A stretch of 46,379 bases of DNA, taken from positions 1 through 46,379 of the IMG/VR virus record IMGVR_UViG_3300017963_000371; one strand, written 5' to 3'. The number at the start of each line of letters is the position of its first letter. Within the stretch, counting starts at the first letter, position 1. The position numbers were made by a program, and so were the translations under genes. Positions 2,178 to 46,379 of this stretch are shown here, piece after piece. Below the pieces are notes generated by a model. It saw only the letters and a program-made list of their open reading frames with translations. It was not told where the DNA came from and did not search any database. Origin of the DNA: a virus (lineage: Duplodnaviria; Caudoviricetes).

Positions 2178-2446
2178 TTTTCTTCCTCCCTTAGCTGTCC
2201 ACTTGGAGCCAGAGTTTTCCGGTAATAAGAGAATAATCGCTCTCTTTCACTAAGTGTTAACGATTGGTTAAAGATTGCTTTGCGTAGGAAACTATAGCCA
2301 TCTTTAAGATAGAATGTGATAATTAGGTACAATCTTGGAGCTGTATTTTTGGCGATTGTGGCATTAGTAAAATTAAAGCTTTCTTTCATCTTCTTTCCTC
2401 CTGCTGAAGTTAAGAGAGAAGTTTTCTTTTTTTCTTCCCTCCTCAC
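2174..2446 (-). CDS. Hypothetical protein (start probably MKESFNF near 2389)
   Basis: GGAGGA RBS before MKESF. Confidence 0.55.
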   Translation of the reverse strand: MRREEKKKTSLLTSAGGKKMKESFNFTNATIAKNTAPRLYLIITFYLKDGYSFLRKAIFNQSLTLSERERLFSYYRKTLAPSGQLREEEK

Positions 2447-2454
2447 CTCAGAAG

Positions 2455-2569
2455 GTTTGCAAATGGTGAGGTTGAGAACACTCTGGGCGGACTTATCCCT
2501 TGAGTTTAATCAAAAACTACTGGATTTTTGCCAACTTCCAAAAGATTCTTTCCCTCACCATTTGCAAAC
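2455..2569. repeat. Perfect 17-bp inverted repeat
   Basis: GTTTGCAAATGGTGAGG (2455-2471) / CCTCACCATTTGCAAAC (2553-2569). Confidence 0.9.
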
Positions 2570-2990
2570 TTTTCTTCTTTGCAATCGATTGACTTGTTTG
2601 AGCAGTTTTCTCTTCCAAGGAGAATCAAGAATCCGAAGGAGTGTTAACCGGTATTAACTCTAATCCTCAGCACAATCTTTTCTTGTTCTAGGTTGAAAGA
2701 AAAGTTTAGCTGCTCACTAGAGAGAGAAAACTAATCTTTCTCTCTCCGGTTAGAAGCTAAGGTTCTAACTAGCAGGTTTTCCCTGCTACTTTCAGCATTG
2801 ATGTTACCTCTTTTTGGTTGAATTTCTTGCGGCTTTTTTGAAGTACATCTTTTTCCCTTCATTGGAGCAAGAGGCACCAAGTTCTTTTTTTCTAGGGAGA
2901 AGCGCGTGAATTCTTCACTTTAACCTCCTTGGCAGAGCTTTCTCTGTCCAGTTAATGGTTTGGTAGTTAGGATTTCCTTTTTTCTAACCA

Positions 2991-3104
2991 GCCAGCAGAG
3001 AAGGAAAGGTGCTATGAACGAACATGCTTTCCTGCTCTAATTGCTGTTTAGCATTTTTATTCAGTTGTCAAAGAGCTGTTTTTCTTGGAGTCGCTTTATT
3101 AAGC
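2991..3104 (-). promoter_or_regulatory. rrn-like leader copy A: small hairpin + boxA + conserved stem-loop
   Basis: Minus strand: GCTTAATAAAGC (3104-3093), GCTCTTTGACAACTGAATA (3076-3058), stem-loop with apex AGCATGTTCGTTCATAGCACCT (3028-3007). Confidence 0.75.
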
Positions 3105-3139
3105 CCGCTTATCTCCTTTCTTTTCTTTTCTCTTACCTT

Positions 3140-3168
3140 ACTGTAAGAGATTTTCCAGAAAAGGTCAA
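3140..3168 (-). promoter_or_regulatory. sigma70-type early promoter A
   Basis: TTGACC-17 nt-TACAGT on minus strand, A-rich upstream element. Confidence 0.8.
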
Positions 3169-3409
3169 GGAAAAGTTGATTTTTTCTTTGTTTATTTTCA
3201 ACTTTTTTTTTCTGATTGTTATCTCCAACAACGAGTGCTTGAAAGGCATTCATTTAGATGAATTAATCTTTTATTTATGAAGACCTGTGAATGCCTGATG
3301 ATGTGGTAATAGGTATTAGGGCAGTGTTGACTTCTTCTTAGATCAATTCTGTAGTGTCGATAGGTTTGGTCAAAGCGTTCTTTTGGTGTCATGAGAATCT
3401 CCTTTGTAG

Positions 3410-3773
3410 TGTCTCAGGTGCGACAAGTGAGACGATTGAGACAGTTGAGCACCCCCCCCCTCCTATAGTTGGAGATTAATTGAGGATGCTTAATGATTTT
3501 AGTAAGTTAGTTTTAAGTGACTGATTTTGCGTGTGTTTTATTCATCAGTTTAGTTAATTATATATTAAATATATATAAAAAATATTGATATAAACATATT
3601 TAGGAGCTTCTAAAGCACTGAAATGACTAAGTTTTTTCCGTTAGATTTTTATATATTTTGTAATTTGAAAGAAAAGACTTGACAAGGAAATCAAGCCTTC
3701 TCTTTTCTTCTTTTCTTGAGGGCACCCCCCTGTCTCAAGTGTCTCATTTGCCTCAACTGTCTGCCTTGAGACA
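3410..3773. other. Putative replication origin (inverted TGTCTCA/TGAGAC iterons flanking an AT-rich core)
   Basis: Iteron-like motifs at 3410, 3428, 3437 and 3731, 3740, 3767; GCACCCCCC at 3449 and 3722; very AT-rich 3540-3680; no convincing ORF. Confidence 0.55.
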
Positions 3774-4212
3774 TTTCAAATATGCCCGCCCGCTTCCAGT
3801 TCCTCAAGCGTTATTCTTGTTTGCCCTGCCTTTCGTGCTCCCTGTTCCATCTCCGGCGGCCCGTCACACCCTGCCAAGAGAACCAAAACCAACAAAATTC
3901 CTAACCATTTCATCTAACCACCTCCACTCGGTAATTTTTGTTACCACCATTCCTAAGAAGCCAGCAGAAGTTTCTAACTCTAATTCCATTAAGTACGCTT
4001 CTCCTGACTTCCTTTTCCAAACTTCCAGGTTATTCTAAGTTTCATCCTAGTTCTCTCTGTTGAGCCACTCGTTGAAATTCTCACCTGTTCTCTCTTCTCT
4101 TTCGTTGATAGGATTGAGAAGAGAGAAGAAAAATTGAACTGTCCAGATAACAAGCATAGCTGGCAATGTCAGTAGTTTAACTAACGTTTTCATGACAGCC
4201 TCCTTTGAGTGC

Positions 4213-4596
4213 TTACCTACACATAAAAATCAACCTGTTTCCGTGTTCGTCTTCAGTTGGGTAGTCTGCGAACACAAACTCCACCAGCCGTTCCCATCCC
4301 TTTGGGACTGGATGACTCCTGTTTATGTGGTTACCGCCCCTGCGTCGGTACTCATTACCGCCGTTGACATAAAAGTACATTGGCTCACCACCTTCAGGGC
4401 TACCAAAATTAAACCTAACGCATGATGGAAGCCCATCTTCTTTCACTATTTTTCTGATGTTCGTTGCATATTCTCGACATGATATCATAATGTTCTCCAT
4501 GTTTAGGGTTTGTTGTGCTGCTTTCTGTCTACTCTTGCCCACCTGAGTGTGGAAGAAGAGTAGAAAGGAGAGCTTATAAGATCTCCATCCCCTCAC
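4213..4596 (-). CDS. Hypothetical early protein (start probably MENIMIS near 4500)
   Basis: ORF downstream of promoter B. Confidence 0.5.
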   Translation of the reverse strand: MRGWRSYKLSFLLFFHTQVGKSRQKAAQQTLNMENIMISCREYATNIRKIVKEDGLPSCVRFNFGSPEGGEPMYFYVNGGNEYRRRGGNHINRSHPVPKGWERLVEFVFADYPTEDEHGNRLIFMCR

Positions 4597-4768
4597 CTTC
4601 CACTGCTTCCTCGGCCAAAAAGATCAATCCTTCCAGCTCTTCGTCTGTTGGAACTCTCTTCTTCCACCCTGTGAAGTTACAAATCAATCTAACAACCTGA
4701 TCCTCAGAGAGCCACTCACTCCAGTAACAAATACAACTAGTTTTGCTTGTGTTCATAACAACCTCCAC
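4574..4768 (-). CDS. First early gene after promoter B, small acidic protein (start probably MNTSKT)
   Basis: GGAGG RBS before ATG near 4756. Confidence 0.55.
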   Translation of the reverse strand: MEVVMNTSKTSCICYWSEWLSEDQVVRLICNFTGWKKRVPTDEELEGLIFLAEEAVEGEGMEIL

Positions 4769-4794
4769 TCTTTCTTTTCTTTTCTATTAGCCTA

Positions 4795-4900
4795 ACCACT
4801 AGTCAGAGCCTAGCAGGTGCTATTAACGAACATGCTCCTAGACTCTAACTACTAGTTATTCAGTTTTCAAAGATCCTGAAGGAGGCAGGCTTTATTAAGC
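4795..4900 (-). promoter_or_regulatory. rrn-like leader copy B: small hairpin + boxA + conserved stem-loop
   Basis: Minus strand: GCTTAATAAAGC (4900-4889), GATCTTTGAAAACTGAATA (4875-4857), 14-bp stem with apex AGCATGTTCGTTAATAGCACCT (4836-4815). Confidence 0.75.
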
Positions 4901-4943
4901 TCTTTTCTTTCTCTTCCCCTCTTCTTTCTTTTGCTTTCACTTT

Positions 4944-4972
4944 ACTGTAGACGATGGTTAGAACAGAGTCAA
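4944..4972 (-). promoter_or_regulatory. sigma70-type early promoter B
   Basis: TTGACT-17 nt-TACAGT on minus strand; same -10 as promoter A. Confidence 0.8.
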
Positions 4973-5270
4973 GAGAAAAGTGAAGAGAAGAGAGAGTTTT
5001 CTAAGAACACCAAGAAAACCAACTACCTAAACCAACCCCTGGTAGTGCTTCAACCCCTAGCATCTACACCACACTAGCCTCACCTAGTCAGAGCCTAGCT
5101 AGTAAGAGAGCGAAACCTAGAGAGGAGAGAAATTTTGCTAACCCTGCCCTCCCCTAATGGGGAAGATGGGGAGATAGATATGAATATGTGCCAACAATAC
5201 AAAATATCTAAAAAATCCCACTAACCCAGGTTTACCCAGGTTCTTTGTCGTTATAACACTAACTTTCCTC

Positions 5271-5299
5271 TTGACAAACAGCGAAAAATATTGTATACT
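5271..5299 (+). promoter_or_regulatory. sigma70-type promoter of the morphogenesis operon
   Basis: TTGACA-17 nt-TATACT, about 40 nt upstream of the terS ATG. Confidence 0.85.
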
Positions 5300-5338
5300 C
5301 TCCTTAGAACTCAAGAGAAACTCAACCCGGAGGAAAGC

Positions 5339-11406: not shown

Positions 11407-11612
11407 AGAAAGAGAATGACCTACGCATCATGTTTAATTCTGAAGGTTGGGATATTTATAGAACCTACTGGCAAGCGGAGATTAAGTCTATTCGTAATGA
11501 CCTAGAGAAACTTGATGATATTAAAGAGATTAAAAAGGCTCAGGGTCGCATTGACGCTATTCGCACTATGCTTTGTCCTGATACCAACTTCCACCTTATC
11601 TGCCAAGATTGA
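11403..11612 (+). CDS. Small conserved head-module protein
   Basis: ATGA overlap with portal, GGAGG RBS; F.SEGW...KAQGRIDAI pattern common between portal and scaffold. Confidence 0.7.
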   Translation: MKKENDLRIMFNSEGWDIYRTYWQAEIKSIRNDLEKLDDIKEIKKAQGRIDAIRTMLCPDTNFHLICQD

Positions 11613-11628
11613 CTGGAGTGAGCGTTGT

Positions 11629-13068
11629 ATGGTTATAGATTATGATTTTATTCATCAACTAGAAGGAGGTGTGTTAGCTGAAGGTTATGTACCTCAGCAG
11701 AATGGTGAAGCAATAGCGCAAAGTGGTGTGACTATTGGAGGAGGTATTGATTTAGGTCAGCAGAAGATTGAGGAGTTAGAGAATCTTGAGGTTGCTCCTG
11801 GTACATTAGCTAAGCTAAAACCATTCATTGGACTTCAGAAAGCTGATGCTATCGAAGCCCTAAAAGCATCTCCTTTAGTCTTAACTAACGAGGAAGCTGA
11901 AGAGCTAACTAAAAGGGTCATTGATCGCGATCTGGGAAAACTAAAATCACAGTACACGGAGCAAACTGGAGAGTCTTTTGACGATCTTCCAGCAGCAGCA
12001 CAGACTGTAGCTGCTTCACTAAATCACCAATACGGTAATCTTCCTTCAAAAACACCGAGATTTTGGAGCTTCTTAACTCAAGGCAAGCTGGATGAAGCAG
12101 TCGCAGAGCTTAAAGATTTTGGTGATAGATATCAATCACGACGACAGTCGGAAGCAGCTTTTTTAGAAAAAGGATTAAAAGAAATGGCAAAAGAAAAAAC
12201 TCCTGATGTAATAGATCAAACTGAGGATATGGTAGCTATGCTAGGCATAGAATCACCAGAAGAATTAGAAGAATTAGCGGTGGAAGAGCATGAAGATATT
12301 GGAGAAGAGCCACCTGAAAACGCTGAAGCAGATACGGAAGTTGACGAAGATGCAGATGATTCAGGTGTGGAAGAGGCTGGAGTGGCTGATGAGTCTGTGG
12401 ATGATTCTAATGAAGGAGATTCTGAAGATTCAGATAAAGAACCTGAACCAAAGGATCCAAAAGATGCTCAGATCGAAGCTCTTTTAACTCAGATACAAAG
12501 ACAAACAAACACGGTAGTAACTCCAGAAGTAGCTAAAGAAGAACCAGAAGCAGCACCTACTTCCAGTGAGGAAGAAGCTCCTTCACTTACTGAGTTCTTA
12601 GATAAACTTGACTTTGATGCGGCTCTCGAAGATCCAGACGCTTTTAAGCGCACGCTCGCTGAAGCCTTTTCTTTATCTCAGAAAGAAACCGTAGGTGCTC
12701 TTCAGAAAGTTGTCCCACAGACTGCTGCAACGACAGCCACTGAAGCTGTTAGAACGCAGCAGATGGTCAATCAGTTTTACGCTGAGAATAGTGACCTAGC
12801 AGAAAAGAAACAACTGGTTCAAATTGTAGCTCAGCAGATTGAATCTGATAATCCGAATACCCCCGTTGCAAAACTTTTGGAAGAAGCTGCCAAAGAAACT
12901 CGAAAACTTCTTGGCCTCCCGCCATTGAAGAAAACCCTTAAAGAGAAGCCTATACGAAAGAACAAAAAACCTGCTTTGCCTAAGCAGCAAGGCAAACGTA
13001 AAGCAACTCCAAAGAAGTTAACTAAACAACAAGAAATGATGATGGAGGTTTTGAACAGTTATGACTGA
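11629..13068 (+). CDS. Pesticin-like muramidase fused to capsid scaffolding protein
   Basis: IDYDFIHQLEG..GYVP..SGVTIGGGIDLGQ..SLNHQYG..Y.SRR.SEA, then an acidic linker, helical domain and Lys-rich tail; in-frame internal ATG 12184 with AGGA RBS. Confidence 0.8.
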   Translation: MVIDYDFIHQLEGGVLAEGYVPQQNGEAIAQSGVTIGGGIDLGQQKIEELENLEVAPGTLAKLKPFIGLQKADAIEALKASPLVLTNEEAEELTKRVIDRDLGKLKSQYTEQTGESFDDLPAAAQTVAASLNHQYGNLPSKTPRFWSFLTQGKLDEAVAELKDFGDRYQSRRQSEAAFLEKGLKEMAKEKTPDVIDQTEDMVAMLGIESPEELEELAVEEHEDIGEEPPENAEADTEVDEDADDSGVEEAGVADESVDDSNEGDSEDSDKEPEPKDPKDAQIEALLTQIQRQTNTVVTPEVAKEEPEAAPTSSEEEAPSLTEFLDKLDFDAALEDPDAFKRTLAEAFSLSQKETVGALQKVVPQTAATTATEAVRTQQMVNQFYAENSDLAEKKQLVQIVAQQIESDNPNTPVAKLLEEAAKETRKLLGLPPLKKTLKEKPIRKNKKPALPKQQGKRKATPKKLTKQQEMMMEVLNSYD

Positions 13069-31955: not shown

Positions 31956-33134
31956 CTACCCTCCCATATAACTAATCTTCGTGCTCTTTTCAAGAACATT
32001 TGAACTGAGCTTAAACATCTCATGCATTCCAACAGCAGTAACTACGCTCCTAATTTCTAGTTCAGTAGCGTCACGAAGAAAGGCTTCAACAAGCTCTCCG
32101 TATGTTACTGTCTTATGCTTTATAACATAATCCCTAAGCTCCTGAATCACTGGCATGAGATGATTTTTTCCTGATCCGCCTAAAGCCATAGGCATCTTTC
32201 GTTCAGTCACCTCCAAAATTTTTCTGGCTTTTTCAAAATCCACAGGCTTCAAAACAAGTTCATTACTCCTAGCTACACTGCATATCATAGCAAGCTTCAT
32301 GATATGTAACTGCCGCCTAGAGCAATATCCAGCAAAGCGTGGATCTGAAATAGGCAAATGATAATATTGATGATTATACCACTCAGCATAAAGATCAAAG
32401 AACTTACTAGTGTACTTAAACTGCCCTTCCAATTTATGAATGGTAGCTAGGTCTTCTTGTAGGTCTAATCCTATCTGTTGCTGTGCTTCTGTTGGTGCTG
32501 GAAAAGCGCAAGGTTTTCCCTTTTCTTCGTAGACAAAAATAATTCTACTGAGAAGTCCACCACCCTCTGCTTCTGGTGGAAGTGTATCGCGTAATAAGCT
32601 GGGTGTTATACCTCCAAGAATATTTAAATAAACTCCTTCAAGAACAGTCTCCTTTCGCATGATGCTTTTGTACGACCAGTATTCATAGCACTTATAGAGA
32701 TCGCAAAGTGCTCTTAGCATCTCTCTGTCATCTCTTAAGAAGACTACGAACTCATCACAAAAAGCAGATACAGCAGCTTGCTTTTTATAGCCTTTCTCTC
32801 CTGCTTCTATCTCTTGTGCTTCTCTTAACACTTCTATAAGAGCTTGTGGTGACGCAAGTGCCTGTGGAGCTAATGTGATTCCAAGAGCATGTAAGAGATC
32901 ATAACCGAGATCAATAGCTGTGCCTTTTCTAGCTTGGCCTGCTGGACCTACTAGAGCAATATAAAAATTTGGGTACCAAGTTAGATGTGCTCCCCAGGAA
33001 AGCCAAACCTTACGTTGAAGAGCTCCAGCTATAGTTGCTACTGCTGTCCATAACTTGAAGTTGTAAGGAGGCTCTGTATTTTCCGTGTACTCAAGAAAAC
33101 CATCTAACCAGTTTTCTAATCTACGCTCCATCAC
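31956..33134 (-). CDS. DUF3987/YfjI-like P-loop ATPase, putative replicative helicase
   Basis: YPNFYIALVGPAGQARKGTA (Walker A), FCDEF (Walker B), LNILGGITP, GGLLSRIIFV; adjacent to polA. Confidence 0.8.
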   Translation of the reverse strand: MMERRLENWLDGFLEYTENTEPPYNFKLWTAVATIAGALQRKVWLSWGAHLTWYPNFYIALVGPAGQARKGTAIDLGYDLLHALGITLAPQALASPQALIEVLREAQEIEAGEKGYKKQAAVSAFCDEFVVFLRDDREMLRALCDLYKCYEYWSYKSIMRKETVLEGVYLNILGGITPSLLRDTLPPEAEGGGLLSRIIFVYEEKGKPCAFPAPTEAQQQIGLDLQEDLATIHKLEGQFKYTSKFFDLYAEWYNHQYYHLPISDPRFAGYCSRRQLHIMKLAMICSVARSNELVLKPVDFEKARKILEVTERKMPMALGGSGKNHLMPVIQELRDYVIKHKTVTYGELVEAFLRDATELEIRSVVTAVGMHEMFKLSSNVLEKSTKISYMGG

Positions 33135-35620
33135 ATCTCCTTAGCTTTCTTAGTTGTCTTCTCTTTCACTCCTTCCCAGGTTTTTTCGAGCAGCTTTGCA
33201 ACTTTGCTACCCTCTTGATCCACCTGCTTGGATGTAAGATCTTTTCCATTCTTAAATCGCTTAAAAAGAGTTGTGTCCACTGGGATAACGAACTCTCTTC
33301 CGTGGGCAACAAGTGGAATTTCCAAGTTGGTTTTAATAAGCTTGACCATTTTGGCATGATCCTCCCAGCTAACTGGTCTAGTGGGGTGGGAAGGACTTGG
33401 GATTTGAAATTGTATCTCGTCATGGACTTGTCCTAGTAATTCAATTGGGCTGAATAATTCTGGGTTGTCATAGACATAGCTCATCCCTCTTTCATTGATA
33501 ACATCCCCAACGGTTCCCTGTGGAATACAAGAGTAAGCTTCTTTTAAAAGCATATGATTTATCTCTCCAAGGAACACAGTCTTTCTACCCATTAGGTTAG
33601 TTATGGTTCTGTTCTTGTAGAGTTGCGCCTTTATGCTATCATGATATATTTCTCGAACCTCTGGATAACCTTTGTGGTAGCTCCCCAAAAGAAACTGACC
33701 TTCCTTTTCTGGAATCTCTAGTTTTAGAGCTAGTGCTTTGTAACCAATGCCATAGTTAGAGCCATGATTTACTGGTTTAGCCCACTGGCGCTTGGTTTTA
33801 GTCCCATCTCCAAGATCGCACATAATCTTAGCAGTATCTTCTGCTTTAATTTCCTGCCAAGTACCACCAAAAATCATGCTGCCAGTTAAAGAATGTGTGT
33901 CTACCTCCTCTTCAAAGGCTTGAATCATCTTTCTTACTTTTCCTTGATAAGCAACGATTCTGTTTTCAGCATTAGAAAGATCCATAGCGTAACCAACATA
34001 GTGGGGATCCGTCATTAGACACCACAATAACACATGTGGCCAATTCTGCATGTTGGTGCCGGTGCCGAATATATTGCCTGAACTTGAAAGCCTACTGTAT
34101 CTAGTACCTACTGGATTATAAGAGCAACGAAGACGACCATCAGAATCAAACAACTCAGTTTTGACATAAGTGCCAAGTTGTTTCCTAAGTCTACGGATGT
34201 CTAGTATTTTTTCTGCTTCCTTTACCCCTTTTCTCTTCAGTCTTTTCATGGCTATGTTATTGTAGGAGATCTTACCTTTGTTCTTGTAAGGCGTGTAACC
34301 TAGCTTTCCATGAAAGTATTCTTTTAGCTGCTTAGGTGAGTTAGGATTTAGCTCTTGTCCTGCAAGCTCATCAAGCTCTTCTCGCTTTCTATGGATCTCG
34401 ACTTCTAGTTCTAGGCTCTTTTTCCTGATCCAATCAACATCAGCCTTGACTCCATGCTCTTGGAGGAATACCAAGGGTTCTATAATCCCTCGTTGACGAT
34501 CATATGTCACTAAATTCCCCTGCTCTTCAAGATCCTTGAGTTGAGACTTGAGGGCTATTCGACATACTAAGGAGTCCTTTGCATTGTAAGCCCATCTATT
34601 CTGCCATACACCATCCCAGTCTTTTCCTTCGTCTTTGTGAAATGGTAGTTCTGTATGTATGCTTGTTATGAATCCGAGATTTTTCTTGAAATCAGGACAA
34701 GCAACCTGCTGAGCTACCATAGTGTCATGACAATTAACAGGACAAATACCATAACGGTTTAAAAGAAAGCTGTTATCAAAAGAAAGGTTCTGACCTACCT
34801 TTTCTATCTTGGGATCTTCAAGGACTTTTGCTATTCCTTTCCAGATCTCTAGCTCCTGCTCAGAACTCCAGAGATTTCCTGATTCAGAGGAATAGAATGG
34901 AATACTAATAGCATGACGTGGCGTAGTAGAGAAGGAAATGCAATCTACTTGCTTTTTATACGCCTCGATGTCAAAAGCTATTAAAGTAGCTTTTGGTAGA
35001 ACAGAGTAGATGTAATGGAGAATTCTTGAATAAGGTGGATCTGTTTCAATGATGCATTTATAAGGGGTATAGGTTTTTTTCCTTGCTGCTCCCGCTGCGC
35101 GCTTTATGTCAAAACCTATGAGCCATTGATTTAGGTAGATGCATTGTGGTGGCAACACTGTTGACGGATGAAGACATGGTATAACCCATTTTCCTGGAAT
35201 TAGAGTTGATTCTATTACGCTTCCACGCCAATTATAGATTCCAGTTTTACCTGTTAATGCCTTGAGAGCGATCTCTCCACAGGCTACAATGAAATTTGAC
35301 TTGAGTTCTGATAGCTCCTGCTGAAGAGCAGAAACATATTGCTGCCCTTGCGGACGAAACTCATGTGCCTTGGAATCCCATCTGGATTGCCAAGCATTAT
35401 CAAGATCTTTGATTACATAGGTTAGATAGCAATCACTTTTTGTTAATCCTACTTGAGAAAGAGCTTTAGTTAGAATTCGTCCAGTTCCTCCAGCAAAGAG
35501 CTCCTTAACTTGAATTTCCCGATAGGTTGGATACTCTCCTACAATAGCTAGTTTTGCGCTGGCTAAGATTCCTGTTGGTGGAAGGAAAGAACCGGCGGAG
35601 AAGATATTAAGATTTGTCAT
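33131..35620 (-). CDS. Family A DNA polymerase with N-terminal UDG-like and 3'-5' exonuclease domains
   Basis: UDG4-like IVGEYP..E..F.G.TG, LHPS; exo FDIE, QNLSFD, YNAKD; pol motifs RLSSS, DLSNAENR, RQWAKPVNHGSNYG, QVHDEI. Confidence 0.92.
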   Translation of the reverse strand: MTNLNIFSAGSFLPPTGILASAKLAIVGEYPTYREIQVKELFAGGTGRILTKALSQVGLTKSDCYLTYVIKDLDNAWQSRWDSKAHEFRPQGQQYVSALQQELSELKSNFIVACGEIALKALTGKTGIYNWRGSVIESTLIPGKWVIPCLHPSTVLPPQCIYLNQWLIGFDIKRAAGAARKKTYTPYKCIIETDPPYSRILHYIYSVLPKATLIAFDIEAYKKQVDCISFSTTPRHAISIPFYSSESGNLWSSEQELEIWKGIAKVLEDPKIEKVGQNLSFDNSFLLNRYGICPVNCHDTMVAQQVACPDFKKNLGFITSIHTELPFHKDEGKDWDGVWQNRWAYNAKDSLVCRIALKSQLKDLEEQGNLVTYDRQRGIIEPLVFLQEHGVKADVDWIRKKSLELEVEIHRKREELDELAGQELNPNSPKQLKEYFHGKLGYTPYKNKGKISYNNIAMKRLKRKGVKEAEKILDIRRLRKQLGTYVKTELFDSDGRLRCSYNPVGTRYSRLSSSGNIFGTGTNMQNWPHVLLWCLMTDPHYVGYAMDLSNAENRIVAYQGKVRKMIQAFEEEVDTHSLTGSMIFGGTWQEIKAEDTAKIMCDLGDGTKTKRQWAKPVNHGSNYGIGYKALALKLEIPEKEGQFLLGSYHKGYPEVREIYHDSIKAQLYKNRTITNLMGRKTVFLGEINHMLLKEAYSCIPQGTVGDVINERGMSYVYDNPELFSPIELLGQVHDEIQFQIPSPSHPTRPVSWEDHAKMVKLIKTNLEIPLVAHGREFVIPVDTTLFKRFKNGKDLTSKQVDQEGSKVAKLLEKTWEGVKEKTTKKAKEM

Positions 35621-36622: not shown

Positions 36623-37411
36623 TTAAATAATTTTAGCTTTTTTCATTATTACCTCTAAGTCTGGCGTCTCGTAGGGTTCTAACAGCCCATTTGCACTTAG
36701 CCTTGATCGCGCTAAGTTTACGCCAGTCGACTGCGTTAAAATTCGATAGTCTGCCCCTCCTTTTAATTTCTTTTTTGGATCCATTACCCAGACTTCATCG
36801 AAGAGTCCTGGAAGGATGGTTGAATGATCTCCAGTAGCCATAAGACGTTTTTCTACTTGCTTGGTCACCTCGTCTTGTAATATTTTTAGATGACCAGTTA
36901 CGATTACACTGCAAGGAAGACTAAGCATCTTTGACATACAACGCATTACGTGCTGTTTTTGTGGTGTGTAATCATGTTTCCAACGCGGGGCTTCTCCTGG
37001 AATGCCAGCTTTTTTCAACACATCATACATTGCAGCCCTAGAAAAACTGGTAAATGAGTCTAACATATACCAGCCAATGTGATCAAAGTATCCTCCTTTG
37101 GCTCTACGATCAAATTCTTTTTCCCACTCGGTAAAAGCGGTAGGATTCATTACGTCGTCATTTTCCCAAGAGTCATCGATAAGAATGTCCCCTGACTCTG
37201 CCCATGAGCGAAGGCCGACAGATCCTCCTGGATCGAAACTATCCACATGACATGGTTTTTCTTTTGGTGCTGTAGATAGAAGAAATGTTTTTCCTGACCC
37301 TGTTTCTCCAGTAAGAAGGACATTTACTTTCTTTCTTTTGGCCTTGAATTTCTCTCTGAGCTTTGCTTGCTCAGCAGTGAAATCTAGTTTTTTGCTTACA
37401 CGTCTATCCAT
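36623..37411 (-). CDS. AAA_24 / Sak4-like ATPase (recombinase)
   Basis: LLTGETGSGKT, MLDSFT, VIVTGH, LPGLFDEV. Confidence 0.85.
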   Translation of the reverse strand: MDRRVSKKLDFTAEQAKLREKFKAKRKKVNVLLTGETGSGKTFLLSTAPKEKPCHVDSFDPGGSVGLRSWAESGDILIDDSWENDDVMNPTAFTEWEKEFDRRAKGGYFDHIGWYMLDSFTSFSRAAMYDVLKKAGIPGEAPRWKHDYTPQKQHVMRCMSKMLSLPCSVIVTGHLKILQDEVTKQVEKRLMATGDHSTILPGLFDEVWVMDPKKKLKGGADYRILTQSTGVNLARSRLSANGLLEPYETPDLEVIMKKAKII

Positions 37412-38172
37412 TTTGTTCCTTTTTCTTGGGTTGCTATTTTGACTTTCATCTTGCTGGATCTCTTCTTATACTTGTGCTGAAGCTTTCCAATCTCTATGAT
37501 TGAATTGGCTTTGTTAGAGATGTGTCCAAGAACTACTGTATGAGTTCTTTCTGAAGTTAGTTCATATAATAATTCTTTGATATCTTGATTAGACAAATGC
37601 CCCAAGTGACTCCTAATTCTATCTTGAAGCCACTCAGGATATTCGGACTCTAGTAGAAGCTGTTCGTCATAGTTAGCCTCAGTTATCACCACGTCGCTAG
37701 TGGCGAAACGGCTAAATATCAACTCATCCAATTTACCACAATCTGTGCAGTAAGTCAAGCGTTTTCCAGTAGGCTGATGGAAAATCATAAAGCCTGTTGG
37801 ATTCACTGCATCATGATGGATTTTGAATGGGAGAATCTGGCAGTCTCCAATAGCAAAAACATCCTCATGAGAGAAGAAGTTTAATTTTGGAATCTTCTTT
37901 ACCTTTATTTCGCTTGCTGCATGGGTTAACTCATTAAACCAGACAGGAATATCATAACGACGCGCGATTATTCCTGCTCCTTTTATGTGGTCTCCATGTT
38001 CGTGGGTTATTAGGATTCCTTTTAGGTTAATTATTGGGAAGCCTCTTAGCAGGAGACGACGCTCTAATTCCTTACCAGAAAAGCCAGCATCTATTAGAAA
38101 TGCTGTTTCTGAGGTTTGAACTAGAACGCTGTTGCCAACTGAACCGGAGCCTAAGACTGTGAATCTGAACAT
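37396..38172 (-). CDS. MBL-fold metallohydrolase (YycJ/WalJ-like nuclease)
   Basis: LGSGSVGNS, LIDAG, ITHEHGDHIKG, HDA, TDCG, EANYD, GHLSN, LGHIS. Confidence 0.92.
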   Translation of the reverse strand: MFRFTVLGSGSVGNSVLVQTSETAFLIDAGFSGKELERRLLLRGFPIINLKGILITHEHGDHIKGAGIIARRYDIPVWFNELTHAASEIKVKKIPKLNFFSHEDVFAIGDCQILPFKIHHDAVNPTGFMIFHQPTGKRLTYCTDCGKLDELIFSRFATSDVVITEANYDEQLLLESEYPEWLQDRIRSHLGHLSNQDIKELLYELTSERTHTVVLGHISNKANSIIEIGKLQHKYKKRSSKMKVKIATQEKGTKWIDV

Positions 38173-42917: not shown

Positions 42918-43148
42918 TCATACCATAACATCCCTTGGAAAATATTTATCCCTATAAGCAGCGTAAACTTCAGCTCTTTCACGTAAACGCATGTTGATCC
43001 AGCTGATAGATGTACGTGTGTATCCATCTGCGAATAGTTTTTGTCGTAACCTATTAGCGATTGGTGGATCTATTGAAAAATAGTCATAAGCAATAGTCCG
43101 ATGTTCTCTAGTAGGTTCCTTCGCCTCTTTCAACTTTTCTTCCTCCAA
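42918..43148 (-). CDS. Hypothetical protein
   Basis: ORF starting within the 32-bp repeat. Confidence 0.5.
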   Translation of the reverse strand: MEEEKLKEAKEPTREHRTIAYDYFSIDPPIANRLRQKLFADGYTRTSISWINMRLRERAEVYAAYRDKYFPRDVMV

Positions 43149-43411
43149 GCAGTTTGTTGCCAGCCTCTAAGTAACGAGCTTGTATGCTATTGGGGTTGCG
43201 AACCGTCCACAGCAATCGCAACGCCAGCCGCGCACGTTATGCTGAGGTTCCCCTGGTTCTCCATACCTATGTCTTCCTGAGCAGATAGCCTTACCTGGAA
43301 ACTTTAGCAGGTATTGCACTCCTGGTTTCCGTGGTGGCTCTCCCCTGATCCAACTACTCATAAAACACCTCTATCTCTGCTCTTTCAACTTTTCTTCCTC
43401 CAAGCAGTTTG
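43125..43411. repeat. Exact 32-bp direct repeat flanking one small gene
   Basis: ctctttcaacttttcttcctccaagcagtttg at 43125-43156 and 43380-43411. Confidence 0.95.
43167..43361 (-). CDS. Small protein (DUF551-like start, CxCC)
   Basis: MSSWI..EPP..PG.QYL; GAGG RBS. Confidence 0.6.
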   Translation of the reverse strand: MSSWIRGEPPRKPGVQYLLKFPGKAICSGRHRYGEPGEPQHNVRGWRCDCCGRFATPIAYKLVT

Positions 43412-43547
43412 CTGTTTGAGCCATTCAAAATATCGGCAATACCACCAACCTTTATAGCGGCCTAGACTCCACGTGAACCTATCAGCAACTAAGCAAGAGT
43501 CTTTTGCATCACCGCAAGTGAATATTCTTTTAGTCTTTTTCATCTCC

Positions 43548-45876: not shown

Positions 45877-46247
45877 TATTCAAACCTCCCTACTTCAAGC
45901 CAATCATTTCTCGGAACTTCTCTTGCTTTCCCTTGATCTTTTTTCACTAACCAAGGTTCTTCTTCATATTTGCCACCACTAAGAACGATCTTAGCAGGTT
46001 TGAGAAGATTTGTCAAGATGATTTTTGTCGCTTTCTGCTGCTCAGGTGGTCTGGTGATAGAGAGAACTTTCTTTCCTCTTCGGTTCTCAAGAATGGCAAG
46101 AGGGATGCCGGAAACAAAAATGGTGATTTCCTGCCCGGGAATACCACGAAAAGAGATGTTGGCATTTTTGAATTCTCTTTCATTCATTCTCCAGAACATT
46201 CGGACAAATGGCTGGGAGGTGGAGAGAGTTTTTTGATTTAACTTCAT
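45876..46247 (-). CDS. Hypothetical protein spanning the circular junction (5' end duplicated at 1-92)
   Basis: GGAG RBS in both copies. Confidence 0.65.
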   Translation of the reverse strand: MKLNQKTLSTSQPFVRMFWRMNEREFKNANISFRGIPGQEITIFVSGIPLAILENRRGKKVLSITRPPEQQKATKIILTNLLKPAKIVLSGGKYEEEPWLVKKDQGKAREVPRNDWLEVGRFE

Positions 46248-46258
46248 GTCTTTTCTCC
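46156..46258. repeat. Right copy of 103-bp terminal direct repeat
   Basis: Identical to 1-103. Confidence 0.95.
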
Positions 46259-46379
46259 CTTTTAACTAGAAACCCATTGACGAAACTTGGACATTGTTGT
46301 AGGCAGTACTTTGTTTCTTTTTTCCATCTCACTCCAAGATGTTTCTTTTCTCTTTACCATCCTTCTAGCTTCTTGATAA

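Follow-up and report, generated by a model that had tools for sequence, protein, structure and literature searches.

What keeps a 22-nucleotide (nt) sequence almost unchanged at the ends of two hairpins when much of the stems beneath them has been replaced? The question arises in the virus record IMGVR_UViG_3300017963_000371 (Duplodnaviria; Caudoviricetes), a single-contig record of a podovirus-like, 46-kb genome, which was analyzed over its full 46,379 nt (hereafter, the window). An earlier reading of the letters, referred to here as the original prediction, had placed the two tips on the minus strand at 3028-3007 (tip A) and 4836-4815 (tip B) with 21 of 22 bases identical, and both the positions and the single difference proved correct. 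The tips form the ends of the long hairpins in a duplicated minus-strand cassette of ~180 nt, in which a predicted host-type (sigma70) promoter is followed by a small hairpin, a boxA and the long hairpin (Table 1), both copies being located in the region from which the early arm (minus strand) and the late arm (plus strand) run in opposite directions. By analogy with known phages, the cassette most likely acts like the boxA and R0.3 stem-loop of T7, that is, as an early leader in the style of T7 and of ribosomal RNA operons (rrn) in an uncultured podovirus family, carrying a tip sequence that has no match in the collections searched.

The tip repeat is real and not a product of chance. When the genome was shuffled 20 times (dinucleotide-type shuffles), repeats of at least 21/22 identity turned up once, and the real genome holds three other repeated regions at this level; no third copy of the tip is present in the window within 6 mismatches. 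The tip consists of 2 base pairs (bp), a 2x1 internal loop, 4 bp and a 7-nt loop, and the UGUU/AGCA pairing that had been proposed around this loop is recovered, together with the stems, in both the minimum-energy and the centroid fold of each copy (z scores in Table 1). The loop is conserved at 6 of its 7 bases, the sole change in the tip being located at the loop apex. The further claim that the stems differ in sequence applies to part of them: along 59 ungapped columns of the hairpins, identities run 6/6, 0/6, 21/22 (the tip), 0/6, 5/5, 0/5 and 7/7, so that three blocks are fully replaced, whereas an AGAG/CUCU block is kept exactly 6 bp below the tip in both copies.

Pairing within the replaced 6-bp block is maintained by four pairs with double changes, and the structure shared by the two copies beats every slid control (91.7% of cells paired versus 42-53%). 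Nevertheless, natural covariation, as originally claimed, is too strong a term: 31 of 500 shuffles reach the same four pairs, which is the floor for two sequences; 3 of the 18 stem pairs are broken in one copy; and because the tip was found nowhere else, the covariation draws on two paralogues only. It is suggestive, short of statistical proof. When folded as RNA, the transcribed strand of copy B is clearly favored over its complement (-24.1 versus -12.4 kcal/mol), the values for copy A being just -18.1 versus -16.7 kcal/mol. Taken as a whole, the tip is most likely the conserved end of a hairpin that acts as RNA, within cassettes that are predicted to be transcribed and folded. Rfam returned no match at the gathering score across the window, and among its 28 weak matches (E<=10) in 2380-5300 there is no hairpin family that spans a tip.

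Several other likenesses were considered and dropped. Mimicry of a repeat from clustered regularly interspaced short palindromic repeats (CRISPR), i.e., an RNA anti-CRISPR, found no more than 9 matching nt, at the junction of leader and repeat in a Syntrophales array; the GC-rich stem of that repeat is absent here, and Rfam gave no CRISPR match. Resemblances to a T-loop, an SOS-box and a short piece of 16S rRNA seemed short or incomplete. For the tip as an antisense to the early arm of the phage, the best duplexes (-13 to -19 kcal/mol, computed without a control) revealed nothing clear.

The likeness between the two copies reaches ~140 nt further 5' of the tip, through boxA and the small hairpin (12/12) into the promoter. 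It is arranged in islands: the promoters agree at 5/6 positions of the -35 element and 10/12 of the -10 region, and at 6/17 positions of the spacer, and the flanks of the cassettes at 7/20 and 9/20. Given that identity is confined to islands and that those of known meaning are functional, the pattern argues for selection on the tip. The small hairpin has a local z score of -0.62 in copy A, which is not significant alone, and in copy B it is paired, but in a local fold (69 nt) that is no better than shuffles (z +0.72). What follows the cassettes also differs: copy A is continued by a further ~600 nt of leader that is also folded (for the 756-nt leader, z -5.67 against 20 shuffles), whereas copy B is succeeded, 36 nt on, by a ribosome site and short open reading frames (ORFs).

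The label of boxA, just downstream of which the tip had correctly been placed, was put to the test. The exact 17-mer was found at no fewer than 122 bacterial loci (~5800 are estimated), and in 49 of the 122 among the matches listed it stands just 5' of 16S (29) or 23S (20) rRNA, the rRNA starts being called downstream in sense by primer motifs. Neither start follows in the other 73 listed loci, 20 of which offer <250 nt to inspect; in a subset of 20 of the 122 loci, Rfam confirmed rRNA in 8, the same 8 that the motifs had called. The 17-mer equals the boxA of rRNA leaders and spacers from many phyla, including a Desulfobacterales genome, and it is one base (copy A) or two bases (copy B) away from the gamma-proteobacterial consensus, given as GYTCTTTAANA in the part of PMC5725501 consulted. 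Both copies are in the sense strand, at about +58 and +63 relative to the transcription starts predicted for them. As described in the consulted parts of PMC10250234, PMC6614801, PMC8632103 and PMC5725501, boxA is the NusB/E site, necessary and sufficient for the rrn complex, and the boxB hairpin precedes boxA in rrn and succeeds it in lambda. The assignment of the 17-mer as a genuine rrn-type boxA is well supported by these sequence matches, and by analogy with rrn it probably loads host Nus factors in this phage too.

The signal is not restricted to this genome. The 17-mer occurs in an estimated ~380 viral stretches, and in those listed (at least 120) it often appears, by eye, right after promoter-like sequence. 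Among the 314 relatives in the terminase family, 80 loci were scanned with a looser boxA pattern, yielding 24 matches upstream of terL on the opposite strand versus 11 in the other three sectors. A promoter of at least 9/12 precedes 16 of those 24 matches, compared with 0/11 in the other sectors, and the combination thus recurs in 16 of the 80 loci, with 16 of 16 promoter-linked sites on the early strand. The 16 loci include close kin (a pair and a trio), many of the 80 loci are short of upstream DNA, and the two closest relatives examined do not show the combination of promoter and boxA.

Four observations on boxA stand apart from this argument. In a Syntrophales genome, the 17-mer is found ~20 nt ahead of a CRISPR array. 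At three Bacillota loci, the Rfam pemK RNA is situated 135-145 nt downstream of the 17-mer, with flanks that recur in several other loci. One bacterial genome carries 26 copies, nearly all within ~100 nt of contig ends, which probably reflects a repeated element. In several relatives (4 loci), the first early gene has its ribosome site buried in the hairpin that comes after boxA.

Beyond this phage family, the order of the signals matches that of the T7 group. In the sequence records, boxA is located at 813 in T7, 781 in T3 and 915 in phiYeO3-12, after promoters A1-A3, and the records of T3 and phiYeO3-12 annotate the R0.3 stem-loop 41 nt after boxA, ahead of gene 0.3. No paper that states the function of the T7 boxA was found in the literature. 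In T7, T3 and phiYeO3-12, as in the present genome, a promoter is followed by boxA, a long hairpin with an internal loop, a short gap and the first gene, a layout held by copy B with a gap between hairpin and gene of 36 nt compared with 25 nt in T3. As candidate sites for ribonuclease III (RNase III), the hairpins here score 11-12, within the 11-14 spanned by the annotated sites. Unlike in the T7 group, every promoter here has its own boxA and hairpin, boxA is of the TTTGA form found outside gamma-proteobacteria, and the tip is conserved with 4 bp above the internal loop, in contrast to the 9-11-bp upper stem and variable loop of the T3 type.

The scores refer to the weak Escherichia coli RNase III cleavage consensus printed in the accessible part of PMC4357697, with ends WNAGWG/CWCUNW; it has 16 informative positions and is derived from E. 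coli. Across 17 registers, both copies peak in the same one, with single-strand scores of 11/16 (copy A) and 12/16 (copy B). In this register, the TTAGAG/CTCTG block coincides with the distal end of the consensus and the start of the tip with its proximal motif, and the predicted cuts fall after tip base 2 on the 5' arm and right after the last tip base on the 3' arm, with a 2-nt 3' overhang. Of the 759 hairpins predicted in the genome, 32 reach a score of 11 and 11 a score of 12; the corresponding counts in shuffles are 43/300 for A and 4/300 for B, and six annotated RNase III sites of T3 and phiYeO3-12 score 14, 14, 11, 14, 13 and 12. Where informative consensus positions fall in columns conserved between the copies, 11 of 13 match. 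The lower helix measures 12-14 bp, with 10-11 of 12 positions paired in the consensus register, and, according to the part of PMC1540722 consulted, a single set of proximal and distal boxes (pb and db) on an 11-bp helix suffices for the E. coli enzyme. The paralogous sites R0.3, R0.45 and R0.5 of T3 and phiYeO3-12 have a common core, with other parts of the stem differing.

Other results weigh against cleavage. Copy A alone is not significant, as 43 of 300 shuffles reach its score; the copies do not count as independent of each other; and the controls, R0.3, attain 14. The consensus itself is weak, comes from E. coli and was one of several motifs tried; with paired half-site scoring, copy A drops to just 9, tied with two other registers. 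Only 4 bp form the upper helix above the predicted cut. The consulted part of PMC1540722 describes a minimum helix of 11 bp, preferred proximal and distal pairs and an inhibitory G-C-type pair at pb2; in its numbering as read here, the lower proximal box is the variable 6-bp block and copy A has a G-C-type pair at pb2, and the distal wobble is reversed relative to that source. The same part of that paper describes no requirement of RNase III for loop sequence, yet the loop here is conserved. Elsewhere, the consensus is not in excess after boxA: 2/17 post-boxA sequences of relatives reach 11 versus 21% of shuffles, and at other viral boxA loci 19/119 do so versus 14% of shuffles. In other registers, six proximal and distal elements were counted, at best 5/6 in copy A and, with an antideterminant, 4/6 in copy B; since true T3 and phiYeO3-12 sites contain 3-4 of the 6, the count does not discriminate. 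Variation of distal-box sequences between phyla is allowed for in the accessible part of PMC1540722, and degenerate proximal boxes are reported in that of PMC3867540.

The original prediction had left binding and processing side by side; the T7-like layout and the consensus register favor processing, and no N-like protein was identified. In the explanation we prefer, boxA would load host NusB/NusE, allowing RNA polymerase to read through the early arm, and host RNase III would cut the long hairpin at the borders of the tip, as at R0.3 in T7-like phages. Such cleavage would either free the early message of its leader or open a single arm, in which case a protective stem would stay in place. In light of the results against it, we regard RNase III cleavage, given the rest, as evenly balanced between true and false, and the explanation as a whole as falling a little short of an even balance.

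Three other known systems share some of these features. As in the bacterial rrn leader, a promoter, a hairpin and boxA occur in this order (described in parts of PMC6614801 and PMC10250234). The rrn leader has boxB, boxA and boxC and a leader-trailer helix with an RNase III site, whereas the phage has a local hairpin and no long-range helix, no boxC-like run at a fixed 18-19 nt and linkers that differ by 9 nt between copies, and its cassette drives phage messenger RNA. Neither the small hairpin with boxA nor the tip occurs beyond chance in 401 genomes of the phylum of the Desulfobacterales genome. A long-range helix between boxA and a trailer at 554-580 was rejected, as it beats 60/60 shuffles but not other leader segments; the best long-range duplex of the copy A boxA has a value of -23.0, and 7 of 23 other leader 30-mers do as well or better. 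With lambda nutL and nutR, the cassettes have in common two paralogous sites of boxA and hairpin at two early promoters, with loops that differ at one base; they differ in having a hairpin of 65-70 nt and no small boxB, and a linker of 17 versus 8 nt between boxA and the conserved block, which is thus not fixed. No arginine-rich, N-like counterpart was found, and the basic early ORFs show no clear motif. HK022 put is likewise a promoter-proximal structured RNA in two copies, but the consulted part of PMC8632103 describes it as a ~65-nt double hairpin acting directly on RNA polymerase, whereas here a single hairpin stands behind boxA and no sequence match was obtained in the phage collection; the originally suggested put-like reading is accordingly weak. 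Defining features of nut sites, put sites and the full rrn leader were tested and are lacking here, and we therefore assign the cassette to none of the three.

Searches for the tip in other genomes were uniformly negative. In viral contigs, the exact 18-mer matched once, within a coding region and without boxA or hairpin, and a relaxed 17-base form matched once, in a capsid-like gene. (At one locus, a capsid-like reading frame is interrupted by in-frame TGA codons, suggesting a recoded phage.) Combinations of boxA with half of the tip, of the stem with the tip ends, and of the small hairpin with boxA gave 0 matches each. The tip was found in metagenome contigs in this contig itself only and in no GTDB genome; with up to 3 mismatches, the 401 genomes of one candidate host phylum gave 4 matches versus 5 for the reversed control, and a fuzzy scan of 81 related loci gave 3 matches at 4-5 mismatches, none close to boxA. 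The covariance model that had been envisaged at the outset, built from two sequences (copies A and B), likewise brought no further copy: in the window, the next best matches were the antisense strands, the best E values were 7.6 in the 81 related loci and 1.1 in 100 of 120 viral boxA loci, and no third copy was seen in the whole records, of which 32 of 35 were covered. BLAST of both cassettes against 50,697 phages returned short, weak pieces of coding regions (best E 0.004, 35 nt). In the literature, no paper on the motif was found, and subscription papers and supplements, such as phage RNA catalogues outside Rfam, could contain it. On present sequence data, the combination of promoter and boxA appears to be family-wide and the long hairpin private to this genome.

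The best-surviving rival explanation holds that the tip is a binding site, i.e., a boxB- or put-like loop recognized, together with boxA, by a small phage protein, a protein of the host Nus complex or RNA polymerase. It accounts best for the conserved loop with its sole change at the very tip, and each of the two early promoters has a copy placed behind its boxA, which is the order in lambda (described in part of PMC6614801). A sheared G.A pair may close G-U-U-M-A, and small basic proteins are encoded early, e.g., a 75-aa protein at 1950-2177 (24% lysine plus arginine, isoelectric point 11.9), the Atlas model of which has a predicted local distance difference test score of 0.31; another basic early protein, of 96 aa, is encoded at 234-524. 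However, this protein has at most 3 arginines per 12 residues and no usable Atlas match, and the scan of 70 ORFs brought up no family resembling N, Nun or NusG. Sequence conservation among N proteins is poor. The linker between boxA and the stem differs by 9 nt between the copies, and the RNase III consensus register is left unexplained. Furthermore, the relatives keep promoter and boxA without the tip, and thus read-through across the family would not need it. We consider a binding loop possible but on the unlikely side. Rather unlikely is a bolder proposal, whereby the tip would be a new recognition module on a host-type boxA leader, either the binding loop of an undescribed phage antiterminator or a 20-nt mini-hairpin that RNase III would excise exactly at its borders and whose conservation would reflect a role, once released, as a tiny RNA; for the antiterminator variant, the candidate partner would be the same basic, poorly folded 75-aa protein, the second early protein of a phage that is a non-lambdoid podovirus.

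Another possibility is that only the promoter, boxA and some stable stem matter, the likeness of the tips being left over from a recent duplication or gene conversion and the compensated stem having arisen by template switching between its arms. There are just two paralogues, in one genome, with no copy elsewhere, and 16 nt from the 3' arm of hairpin B occur once more nearby, which attests to local copying of sequence. Yet the presumably unconstrained spacer and flanks have diverged to 6/17, 7/20 and 9/20 identity, the fully replaced blocks (0/6, 0/6, 0/5) adjoin the conserved ones (21/22, 6/6, 5/5, 7/7) without gaps, and the known signals (-35, -10 and boxA) show the same island pattern, all of which renders this account improbable. 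A DNA operator ~100 bp into both early units, at which a phage regulator would shut off transcription through an inverted repeat serving as a dimeric site, is the least probable of all: the near-palindrome centered on CATG with a 4-nt direct repeat at the tip ends, the symmetric AGAG/CTCT blocks and the small strand bias in folding of copy A would suit it, but four double changes keep pairing in an otherwise fully replaced block, the conserved G.U pairs work solely on the transcribed strand, the element lies behind an RNA signal, and no repressor family was seen on the early arm.

Table 1. Features of the duplicated early cassette and its surroundings (positions in the window)
Feature	Position	Strand	Basis or remark
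Predicted sigma70 promoter, copy B, TTGACT-17-TACAGT	4944..4972	-	9/12 consensus
Small hairpin at rrn boxB position, copy B: 4-bp stem, 4-nt loop	4889..4900	-	12/12 identical to copy A
boxA, copy B	4857..4875	-	17/19 positions shared with copy A
Long hairpin, copy B: 14-bp core stem and extensions	4793..4858	-	fold z -5.38
Conserved 22-nt tip, copy B	4815..4836	-	repeat and fold
Conserved distal block, copy B: TTAGAG, pairs with CTCTG (4804-4808)	4843..4848	-	
First ORF 3' of copy B, ~60 aa, ribosome site GGAGG	4574..4756	-	36 nt 3' of hairpin
Predicted sigma70 promoter, copy A, TTGACC-17-TACAGT	3140..3168	-	promoter match
Small hairpin at boxB position, copy A	3093..3104	-	paired in centroid and in 756-nt leader fold
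boxA, copy A	3058..3076	-	identity to rRNA-leader boxA
Long hairpin, copy A	2984..3051	-	fold z -2.35
Conserved 22-nt tip, copy A	3007..3028	-	repeat and fold
Conserved distal block, copy A: TTAGAG, pairs with CTCTG (2996-3000)	3035..3040	-	
Rest of ~745-nt leader after promoter A, many hairpins	2390..2983	-	no credible long gene
First early gene after copy A, 71 aa	2174..2389	-	
Exact 16-nt second copy of hairpin B 3' arm (4799-4814), upstream of promoter B	5084..5099		
Divergent late promoter, before likely small terminase	5271..5299	+	promoter match, 11/12 consensus

The genes around the cassettes are those of a tailed phage. A scan of 70 ORFs against Pfam and PHROG identified the terminase, an SU10-type portal and the major capsid protein on the plus strand from 5.3 kb, and DNA polymerase A, primase and ligase along with numerous small ORFs on the minus strand; an RNA polymerase gene was not detected among these ORFs, and no integrase or repressor family was seen in this phage. 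The first ORF after copy B (scanned as 4574-4768) has no Pfam or PHROG family, and a comparison of the 71-aa early gene after copy A with 5.8 billion proteins of 37-121 aa returned nothing but itself. The closest terminases share 61-66% identity with that of this phage, several of them being encoded on 20-43 kb contigs. Among named relatives, Desulfofustis phage LS06-2018-MD01 comes first (terminase identity of 44%), the host of which was predicted via CRISPR spacers, according to the part of bioRxiv 10.1101/2023.02.06.527410 consulted. In a host check of the present phage, no CRISPR-array context was found around 8 short matches and 2 further stretches. A distant relative (38% identity in terL and 44% in the portal) resides inside a 277-kb contig, and boxA was not seen in the 19.9 kb examined around it.

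Several neighboring features deserve mention in their own right. The leader at 2390-2983 (minus strand) contains long hairpins, e.g., at 2706-2760 and with arms at 2452-2478 and 2546-2572, as well as two very short ORFs with ribosome sites, and has no Rfam match; it could contain further processing sites or a non-coding RNA. Between the cassettes, 3415-3760 includes an AT-rich core (~3540-3700) bounded by 30-nt inverted repeats and runs of C and G, and could be an origin or an end of the genome; a comparable AT-rich stretch is present between two early promoters of the Desulfofustis phage (its 43140-43330). The exact 16-nt repeat of part of hairpin B (its 3' arm) is located within a cluster of CTAG words at 5057-5120; it and 4799-4814 make a direct repeat on either side of the segment with promoter B, boxA and the tip. 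A 45-aa ORF (3776-3913, minus strand) of the small operon downstream of copy B has a signal peptide and a lipobox-like LLAGC and may encode a superinfection-exclusion lipoprotein.

Further afield, positions 1-108 of the window recur at 46156-46263 with one mismatch, after which the final ~116 bases differ, as in a circular or redundant assembly with an unmatched tail. A comparison of part of the cassette region with contigs from two sequencing runs gave no cover and thus no independent confirmation of the assembly. A 37-nt direct repeat lies among the early genes (43124-43160 and 43379-43415, 255 nt apart). The regions 33131-35620 and 37396-38172 hold DNA polymerase A, with a domain of the uracil-DNA-glycosylase family at its N-terminus, and a protein of the metallo-beta-lactamase fold with a sub-threshold match to anti-Pycsar Apyc1 (22 bits versus a cut-off of 50). 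Directly after the portal, 11512-13068 encodes a virion-region protein with a lysozyme-like (pesticin C-terminal) domain.

The duplicated cassette by itself marks which bases matter. If cleavage holds true, the long hairpin would be an RNase III substrate of unusual geometry, with a tiny upper stem and a conserved loop; if there is no cleavage, the tip points to an RNA-binding partner. With just one genome so far found to carry the tip, either outcome would be of limited reach. The locus as a whole provides a clear case of an uncultured podovirus family borrowing the host rRNA antitermination signal at its early promoters.

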